A stretch of 64,000 bases of DNA from a virus. Position numbers and translations under genes: made by a program. This document shows, one piece after another, positions 56,894 through 59,540 of the stretch. The notes under the pieces are model-generated. The model was not told the DNA's origin and did no database searches. It worked only from the letters and a program-made list of their open reading frames with translations. Where the stretch lies: positions 10,991 to 74,990 of the IMG/VR virus record IMGVR_UViG_3300025141_000060. One strand, written 5' to 3'. Within the stretch, counting starts at the first letter, position 1, and every line of letters starts with the position of its first letter.

Positions 56894-56910
56894 TTCCTTG
56901 CACGAAGGAA
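56894..56910 (-). promoter_or_regulatory. SECIS-like hairpin 2 (UUCCUU-CGUGC-AAGGAA)
   Basis: 6-bp stem starting 13 nt after the in-frame UGA at 56926-56924; G at loop position 2. Confidence 0.4.
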
Positions 56911-56911
56911 G

Positions 56912-56965
56912 TTAAGCACCTTTTCAGCAATGTGCTATTCTAGGTATCATAAATCTCTTTTTCAT
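56912..56965 (-). CDS. Candidate 17-aa selenopeptide MKKRFMIPRIAHC-U-KGA
   Basis: AGGA RBS 5 nt upstream of the ATG; TGC-TGA codons followed by a SECIS-like hairpin. Confidence 0.35.
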
Positions 56966-56967
56966 AT

Positions 56968-57255
56968 TTATCCTGCATTAACATTAGGTGATCCCGTAGC
57001 AACATTAGTACAGAGAGTGATTTCATCACCTACCCTACCACACCCCAGACCATTAACAAATACAGTTAAACTACCTGTGGTTATACCTGCGGAATGAGAA
57101 GGACAGGGAATACCAGGAAGTTCGTGAAGATCATTCAAATCTCCCTTCCTAGATATACCCCTTCCGTTAGCATTAACATTAAGAGAGCAACCTACTCTCG
57201 TTGGGATGCTTCAATGAAGTGCGTCTTTATCGTCTTTTCTAGTTACTGCTGGCAT
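56968..57255 (-). CDS. PAAR spike-tip protein (gp5.4-like) with an in-frame UGA at codon 15 (putative selenocysteine)
   Basis: MPAVTRKDDKDALH*SIPTRVGCSLNVNANGRGISRKGDLNDLHELPGIPCPSHSAGITTGSLTVFVNGLGCGRVGDEITLCTNVATGSPNVNAG; three PAAR-type repeats; His14/His44/His54/Cys82 present. Confidence 0.85.
57183..57199 (-). promoter_or_regulatory. Bacterial-type SECIS hairpin (GAGAGUA-GGU-UGCUCUC)
   Basis: 17-nt stem-loop starting 11 nt after the UGA at 57213-57211; apical GU. Confidence 0.7.
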
Positions 57256-57273
57256 ATTTTGTATAGACATAAA

Positions 57274-58286: not shown

Positions 58287-58763
58287 TTATTTTTTTGATT
58301 CTTTTTCTTGTATAGAATTTAATATCTCTTCTAACTTATTCATACGTTGATCTTGATCATCATCTCTAGCATCAATATCCTCTTGAGAAACAGTATTATG
58401 AATTGATCCGAACTTCTTAAACCAAGTTCTACCTTTCTTAGTGAACAAAGGTAAGAATACAAATAATACTAAGTACCAATACCCTAATGTTTTAATCAGT
58501 CCACCTGTTTCGTGTAATGTAGAAGCCGTAGTTCCTTGGACTGGACCCGCACCTGCTACTTGTCCGACTATTGCTGCTGGACTTGCGGAGGGCATAAGCA
58601 TCTCGGAAACCATTACTCCCCCTGCTGCTCCTGCTGCAACTGCTGCTGGTTCAGGGACAAAAGCCGCAACCGCGCCTCCTCCAATTGCACCACCAATAGC
58701 GTGTTTAATAGTACTGCAACTAGTGAGAAAAAGAAAGAGGATTACCAGGAGAAAGTTTTTCAC
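58287..58763 (-). CDS. Lipoprotein with a glycine zipper and a C-terminal TM (u-spanin-like architecture)
   Basis: Lipobox LTS-C, GGAIGGG/AGAAGG, TM LGYWYLVLFVFLPLF. Confidence 0.55.
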   Translation of the reverse strand: MKNFLLVILFLFLTSCSTIKHAIGGAIGGGAVAAFVPEPAAVAAGAAGGVMVSEMLMPSASPAAIVGQVAGAGPVQGTTASTLHETGGLIKTLGYWYLVLFVFLPLFTKKGRTWFKKFGSIHNTVSQEDIDARDDDQDQRMNKLEEILNSIQEKESKK

Positions 58764-58766
58764 GTA

Positions 58767-59540
58767 TCACCCCGATCTCTTATTGCTATTTTGCTCTTTA
58801 TTTGTCGGACGATTTAACTTACTAATAGCAGTTCGTAACGCCCTACCAGCACGACCAATCGAAGATCTCTTCCTACCTCTTTTTTTCCGCAGTGCCCTCT
58901 CCTCAGGAGCATCTAATAAAGAAGGTCTTTCACCAGGAGGAACCCTTCTAGATCGAAGCGTCCCCTTACGTTTAAGACTTGCCACTAAATTACGTTTAGC
59001 CTCATCCCATTCCTCACGAGCCCGTTTTGTAGTTTTCACTGATTCAGTATCGAGCCCACTTTCTCTTTCCGCAGCAGTCTGATACTCTCTAGAAGCAACA
59101 TGGTACTTCGCCGCTTCGCCGCTCCTCTCTCTAATGAGTGTTTCATATATTCTTTTGTATGTATTCATATTAATCTCTGTACTTTGGTTCTCTGGGCGAC
59201 CTCGATGCTTCTGCATGCTATTCAACAGCTCCCTGAACCCCGGCACACCTGTTGTTTTGTTTGTAATCCTATTGTAATAAGCTTGAATCTGTGCTCTTTG
59301 AATCCCTGTTAATGAGGGCCGCTTTAAAGCAGCCTGGGCTTTAGCTATTGAAACTTGAACCTCTGAAGATGTTCCTTCCCCAGCATCTGGTTTGTCGTGA
59401 GGTCCAGCACCAAAGCCTCTAGCTTGTCTACGAGGATCTCTTGCTTGTGTAACTTGGGCAAGGTGCCTTTTAGATCGTTGACGCATAGGACCACCTTTAA
59501 CCTCTAATAAAATAGCTTTAATTTTTTTATAAGTATTCAT
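58767..59540 (-). CDS. Basic putative internal protein made of two fused tagged units
   Basis: MNTYKKIKAILLE at the start and MNTYKRIYETLIRE internally (ATG at 59168). Confidence 0.7.
   Translation of the reverse strand: MNTYKKIKAILLEVKGGPMRQRSKRHLAQVTQARDPRRQARGFGAGPHDKPDAGEGTSSEVQVSIAKAQAALKRPSLTGIQRAQIQAYYNRITNKTTGVPGFRELLNSMQKHRGRPENQSTEINMNTYKRIYETLIRERSGEAAKYHVASREYQTAAERESGLDTESVKTTKRAREEWDEAKRNLVASLKRKGTLRSRRVPPGERPSLLDAPEERALRKKRGRKRSSIGRAGRALRTAISKLNRPTNKEQNSNKRSG

Follow-up and report, generated by a model that had tools for sequence, protein, structure and literature searches.

A conserved 17-codon phage micro-ORF with an in-frame UGA as a candidate selenopeptide gene

Bacterial selenoprotein genes contain an in-frame UGA, which aligns with Cys in homologues, and a small stem-loop, the SECIS, which is bound by SelB. 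The prototype is fdhF of E. coli. In the published consensus bSECIS model, an apical loop of 3-9 nt is carried on an upper stem of 4-16 bp, G occurs in the first two loop positions and is usually followed by G or U, 16-37 nt separate the UGA from the apical loop, and the minimum free energy is at or below -7.5 kcal/mol (PMC13188914, Fig. 2A). Bacterial SECIS elements normally lie inside the coding region (PMC13188914). A vicinal Cys-Sec pair is found in the C-terminal Gly-Cys-Sec-Gly redox centre of mammalian thioredoxin reductase (TrxR), where these are the last four residues of a pyridine-nucleotide disulfide oxidoreductase. A Cys-Sec dipeptide proposed to bind metal also occurs in MbdU, a double selenoprotein with CU motifs (NCBIfam NF045648, listed in PMC13188914). 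No phage-encoded selenoprotein was found in the papers that could be searched, and a recent review of prokaryotic selenoproteomes mentions neither phages nor viruses. Here, we describe a phage micro-ORF whose internal UGA is read through, most likely as selenocysteine.

The analysed stretch of 64,000 nt (the window) is part of a 75-kb IMG/VR record (IMGVR_UViG_3300025141_000060) of an uncultured marine phage, the terminase of which is about 32% identical to T4-like gp17. All elements of the locus are on the minus strand and match the original prediction exactly. The PAAR (tail-spike-tip) gene (56968-57270) ends with TAA at 56970-56968, and a Shine-Dalgarno-like AGGA (56974-56971), inside the end of this gene, precedes by 5 nt an ATG at 56965-56963, which is 2 nt after the PAAR stop. 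Purine-rich motifs sit at the same place in relatives. The 17-codon ORF (56965-56912) consists of 13 sense codons ending in Cys TGC (56929-56927), TGA (56926-56924), the codons AAA GGT GCT for Lys-Gly-Ala (56923-56915) and TAA (56914-56912). One base later, and 13 nt after the UGA, a 17-nt hairpin begins (56910-56894) with a 6-bp stem and the loop CGUGC. The hairpin is not an intrinsic terminator, as its stem is A/U-rich and it is followed on the coding strand by an A-run instead of a U-run, while on the other strand the T-run precedes the hairpin. In a single sequence this arrangement is not beyond chance. Of 2087 TGA trinucleotides in the window, 54 have a qualifying hairpin 11-14 nt downstream against 36-53 in shuffles, and Cys-TGA plus hairpin occurs twice against 1-2 in shuffles. 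The hairpin also folds no better than shuffled sequence (z about 0 to +1). The feature is significant only because it is conserved in relatives, and this conservation, in 14 distinct sequences from independent samples, refutes the explanations by a chance ORF or by a sequencing error at the TGA.

Loci were first fetched through the downstream 128-aa gene and showed the same micro-ORF in three of them (L030, L033 and L060; retrieved loci are designated by L numbers), with synonymous differences such as AGA versus CGC for Arg. A narrow DNA pattern for the tail plus hairpin recovered only the three loci already known. A degenerate DNA pattern for the peptide core then found 24 viral-contig loci, 17 true metagenome loci when TGA was required, and 41 true loci in bacterial genomes of several phyla, namely Desulfobacterota-type 'Deltaproteobacteria', Actinomycetota, Chloroflexota, Nitrospinota, Methylomirabilota, Spirochaetota, Bacteroidota and CPR. 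Strong SD sites are present and wobble positions vary. The resulting family of 65 distinct sequences reads Met, 0-4 residues, Lys/Arg, Phe/Tyr, Met-Ile-Pro-Arg, Thr/Ile/Met, Ala, His/Asn, Cys, then x-x-Gly-Cys/Ser/His/Ala, and in phages a stop usually follows. The conserved Cys is encoded by TGC or TGT in every retained member, although the search patterns themselves required TGY at this codon. Loci L111, L146, L160, L168, L169 and L172 were chance or unrelated matches, two of which may represent a tannase/esterase HC motif. Pfam, NCBIfam and PDB searches with 22-43-residue bacterial homologues gave nothing meaningful, a protein homology search with the 43-aa form found no candidate, and tblastn of a 30-aa member against cultured phages gave only noise. 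The core motif appears in no paper of the literature searched. An unannotated family of 16-27-residue peptides, conserved from CPR bacteria to Desulfobacterota and T4-like phages, is missed by gene callers.

The original prediction proposed that PAAR and the micro-ORF form a two-gene Sec cassette. This linkage is incidental, because the micro-ORF follows unrelated genes in other phages and the PAAR genes beside it in L033, L060 and L126 have no UGA. The neighbours are varied in both phages and bacteria and include PAAR, DUF1360, PAP2, basic proteins, FAD enzyme, ArsR, PALP and others. No conserved neighbouring modifying enzyme, as expected for a RiPP precursor with an adjacent maturase, was observed.

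Codon-position analysis of the UGA clade showed translation beyond the UGA. In 14 distinct sequences the three codons after it are AAA/AAG, GGT/GGG/GGC/GGA and GCT/GCA/GCC, which amounts to at least six substitutions at third positions, all synonymous, and none at first or second positions. The codons before the UGA show the same signature with 2, 1 and 11 substitutions at positions 1, 2 and 3. The terminal stop is TAA ten times, TAG twice, TGA once and TAT once, whereas the UGA is invariant in 14 of 14. In the member with TAT (L089:4547-4618, minus strand, the same sequence as L113), the read-through product would be extended by four residues to a UGA inside the hairpin loop, and the stem is 2 bp longer (-8.1 kcal/mol). 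An antisense ORF cannot account for the pattern, since the antisense frame sharing these wobble positions, inspected by hand, reads TAA in the window. Alternatively, the UGA could be the true stop of a 13-residue peptide ending in Cys, with the bases after it belonging to an RNA element. Several members do have only one Cys near the C-terminus (L088, L097), and most class I members end in Cys followed by TGA. Nevertheless, an RNA constraint would not leave exactly the three wobble positions free while fixing all six first and second positions, nor would it let the next stop cycle through TAA, TAG and TGA, and a plain stop should itself vary among the stop codons. Moreover, the tail x-Gly-Ala-stop has exactly the length of the family C-terminus and keeps its Gly. 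A true stop is therefore considered very unlikely.

The identity of the inserted residue was approached by comparison within the family. In the first test named in the original prediction, Cys-Cys as well as Cys-UGA variants were seen. Six members from unrelated lineages (L092, L104, L136, L143, L147 and L152) have Cys at the UGA position, and none of them has the usual Cys four residues further on. Among the 45 members with neither Cys nor UGA there, 39 have Cys at +4, while the UGA clade has Ala at +4 (Fisher p = 5e-5, not corrected for phylogeny). A search for a class with UGA in place of the +4 Cys gave only two chance hits in G+C-rich DNA. In the wider family, which shares the N-terminal core, the length after the conserved Cys and the Gly at the third position after it, the C-terminus carries two thiols as either Cys-x-x-Gly-Cys or Cys-Cys-x-Gly-Ser with no UGA. 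The family thus appears to need two chalcogens, and in this clade the UGA would supply the second. However, the residue after the conserved Cys is otherwise variable across the family (Ser, Asp, Lys, Gly and others), and the alignment alone does not force Sec.

The second test named in the original prediction, covariation of the hairpin, was also positive. The 5′ end of the hairpin lies 12-13 nt after the UGA in 13 of 14 sequences and its loop 18-20 nt after it in all 14 (19 nt in the window). The stems of 5-8 bp differ (for example UUCCUU, UUCUUU, UUCCUCG, UCUCU and CUGUUUU), yet GU is invariant in the loops of 3-5 nt (CGUGN, CGUG, GUG, GGUCA and AGUU). On an alignment that was fitted to the structure, 95.2% of cells are paired, 4 of 6 pairs show compensatory change, 0 of 500 shuffles reached the observed covariation score, and slid controls scored lower. 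The hairpin follows the ORF into three different downstream contexts (window type, L109 and L110), while the 14 non-UGA phage members have no consistent hairpin at that position. Two class I phage members (L093:8470-8560 and L099:8050-8130, both minus strand) have a long hairpin a few bases after their Cys-TGA stop, with compensatory changes between the two loci. Loop size, stem length, loop sequence and distance from the UGA thus fit the consensus bSECIS model. The stability does not, as the window hairpin has -3.5 kcal/mol in a range of -1.0 to -8.1, and only 2 of 14 reach the cut-off. The review notes that some real bSECIS elements fall outside the model, but we call the hairpin SECIS-like and do not assign it to the consensus. 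No Rfam family was found at gathering score in the window, and only noise at relaxed thresholds.

Since the residue itself is not shown, read-through at a leaky UGA-A site, for example by near-cognate tRNA-Trp or tRNA-Cys, is an alternative in which the hairpin would be an mRNA-end, stability or processing element unrelated to SelB. In favour of this, the hairpin is weak, and hairpins before the downstream A-tract and promoter-like region also occur without the micro-ORF. In L024 (2916-2941) a similar hairpin (5-bp stem, loop AGUGU) follows an upstream gene ending with TGA about 20 nt before it, which is either a relic of a deleted micro-ORF or evidence that the hairpin has an independent role, and by eye L039 also shows a gene-end hairpin before the A-tract. 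On the other hand, purifying selection on the three-residue tail implies that the read-through product matters, and basal UGA leakage is low. The invariant GU loop, the fixed UGA-to-loop distance and its persistence in three contexts fit a recoding signal, and the Cys-Cys subtype predicts a chalcogen at this position. This alternative is regarded as unlikely, though it remains the strongest competitor.

The genetic code of the phage is otherwise standard. TGA ends 12 of 40 long ORFs, 8 of them as ATGA overlaps, table 11 gives 92% coding density, and no suppressor tRNA is present on the record, so general TGA recoding was rejected. Two adjacent genes of 257 aa and 158 aa (58287-59540, minus strand) lie in the same frame separated only by a TGA and are probably just neighbours. 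The PAAR gene has its own in-frame UGA (57213-57211) in the context His-UGA-Ser, where relatives (L003-L023 and L126) have His-Cys-Ser. The phrog_281 match spans both sides of this UGA, and a 17-nt hairpin with 7 bp and a GGU loop (57199-57183) starts 11 nt after it. The same UGA is present in the independent contig L121, which is near-identical and comes from another assembly. No tRNA-Sec, SelA or SelB was found on the record, which is about 67% complete.

Taken together, the best reading is that the UGA is decoded as selenocysteine by SelB and Sec-tRNA(Sec) of the as yet unknown host, to which we assign a probability of about 0.65. This is an inference, as dependence on SelB could not be addressed by sequence comparison, and the 14 sequences are related, so that UGA plus hairpin may reflect a single origin. 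PAAR and the micro-ORF are probably co-transcribed late, as inferred from a TATAAAT-like motif that precedes PAAR, and the micro-ORF is translated from its own Shine-Dalgarno site. While the ribosome translates the 13th codon, SelB-GTP-Sec-tRNA bound to the 3′ hairpin would deliver Sec at the UGA, after which three more residues are added and the ribosome terminates one base before the hairpin. The product would be a 17-residue peptide with a conserved basic and hydrophobic N-terminal part, which presumably docks on a conserved cellular partner, and a His-Cys-Sec-Lys-Gly-Ala C-terminus, whose vicinal Cys-Sec could form a selenenylsulfide or bind a metal. The parallel with the GCUG motif of TrxR drawn in the original prediction holds only for the vicinal Cys-Sec near the C-terminus, a position for which any SECIS must lie at or after the stop. 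There is no flavoprotein body, and Sec is fourth from the end and not penultimate. For MbdU no sequence relation was detected, with bacterial homologues of the micropeptide hitting no NCBIfam model and the phage peptide being too short to scan.

Compared with known SelB-dependent recoding sites, what is new is that the carrier is a phage and the product has only 17 residues, that the hairpin lies wholly outside the ORF, and that it is weak and A/U-rich. If the reading is right, phages use the SelB pathway of the host for very small late gene products, a bacterial-type SECIS can work entirely in the 3′ untranslated region behind a short tail, and a 17-nt hairpin of this kind is enough, which would widen current SECIS search models. 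It is about as likely as not that this is a natural selenopeptide, smaller than any natural selenoprotein known to us, from an undescribed family shared by phages and at least seven bacterial phyla, whose C-terminal dithiol or selenenylsulfide acts on a conserved cellular target. Most bacterial carriers belong to selenocysteine-using lineages, which hints at a link to selenium or thiol metabolism.

The region downstream of the hairpin (56893-56856, minus strand) contains an A-tract, then an inverted repeat (TTTAGGG/CCCTAAA) overlapping a T4-late-promoter-like CTAAATA (56862-56856). It probably serves the next gene, which encodes the 128-aa membrane protein, and is not part of the element. CTAAATA-like or TATAAAT-like motifs recur at this place in dozens of related loci. 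The position of the ORF in an intergenic control region, just upstream of this motif and the hairpin, might suggest a regulatory leader (a uORF or attenuator, possibly selenium-sensing) for the 128-aa gene without a functional peptide. This is improbable, as the whole peptide core, and not only regulatory codons, is conserved at the amino-acid level across phages and bacterial phyla, the downstream gene differs in L109 and L110 and in bacteria is often on the other strand, and the promoter-like motif lies downstream of the ORF, so the ORF is not in the leader of that gene.

In the genomes of bacterial carriers, SelA is present in 28 of 38. This enrichment cannot be separated from phylogeny, since one carrier class, an actinobacterial one, has a background of 37 of 48, and only 3 of those 48 genomes carry the ORF. 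In these three MAGs the ORF lies 3-4 kb from selA on the same contig, whereas elsewhere the two lie on different contigs, and no tRNA-Sec lies nearby. A link to selenium biology is therefore possible but not shown. In most bacterial copies (L127-L171, for example L144:896-1010 and L130:4830-4930) the ORF is followed at a fixed distance by a different conserved hairpin, which has the form GUCC, a 6-nt arm, an 11-nt loop ending AAAC and the complementary arm. An in-frame UGG, UGA or CGG in the 5′ arm covaries with the 3′ arm, and the hairpin is tandem in Chloroflexota. It is absent from Rfam, and 15 bacterial loci gave no family at gathering score. In many bacterial copies (L127, L128, L148, L158, L170 and L171) the two Cys codons of Cys-x-x-Gly-Cys and the codons between them form a near-perfect palindromic hairpin with a 4-nt loop (arm UGCAGC pairing with GCUGCA), and part of the peptide conservation there may therefore be an RNA constraint.
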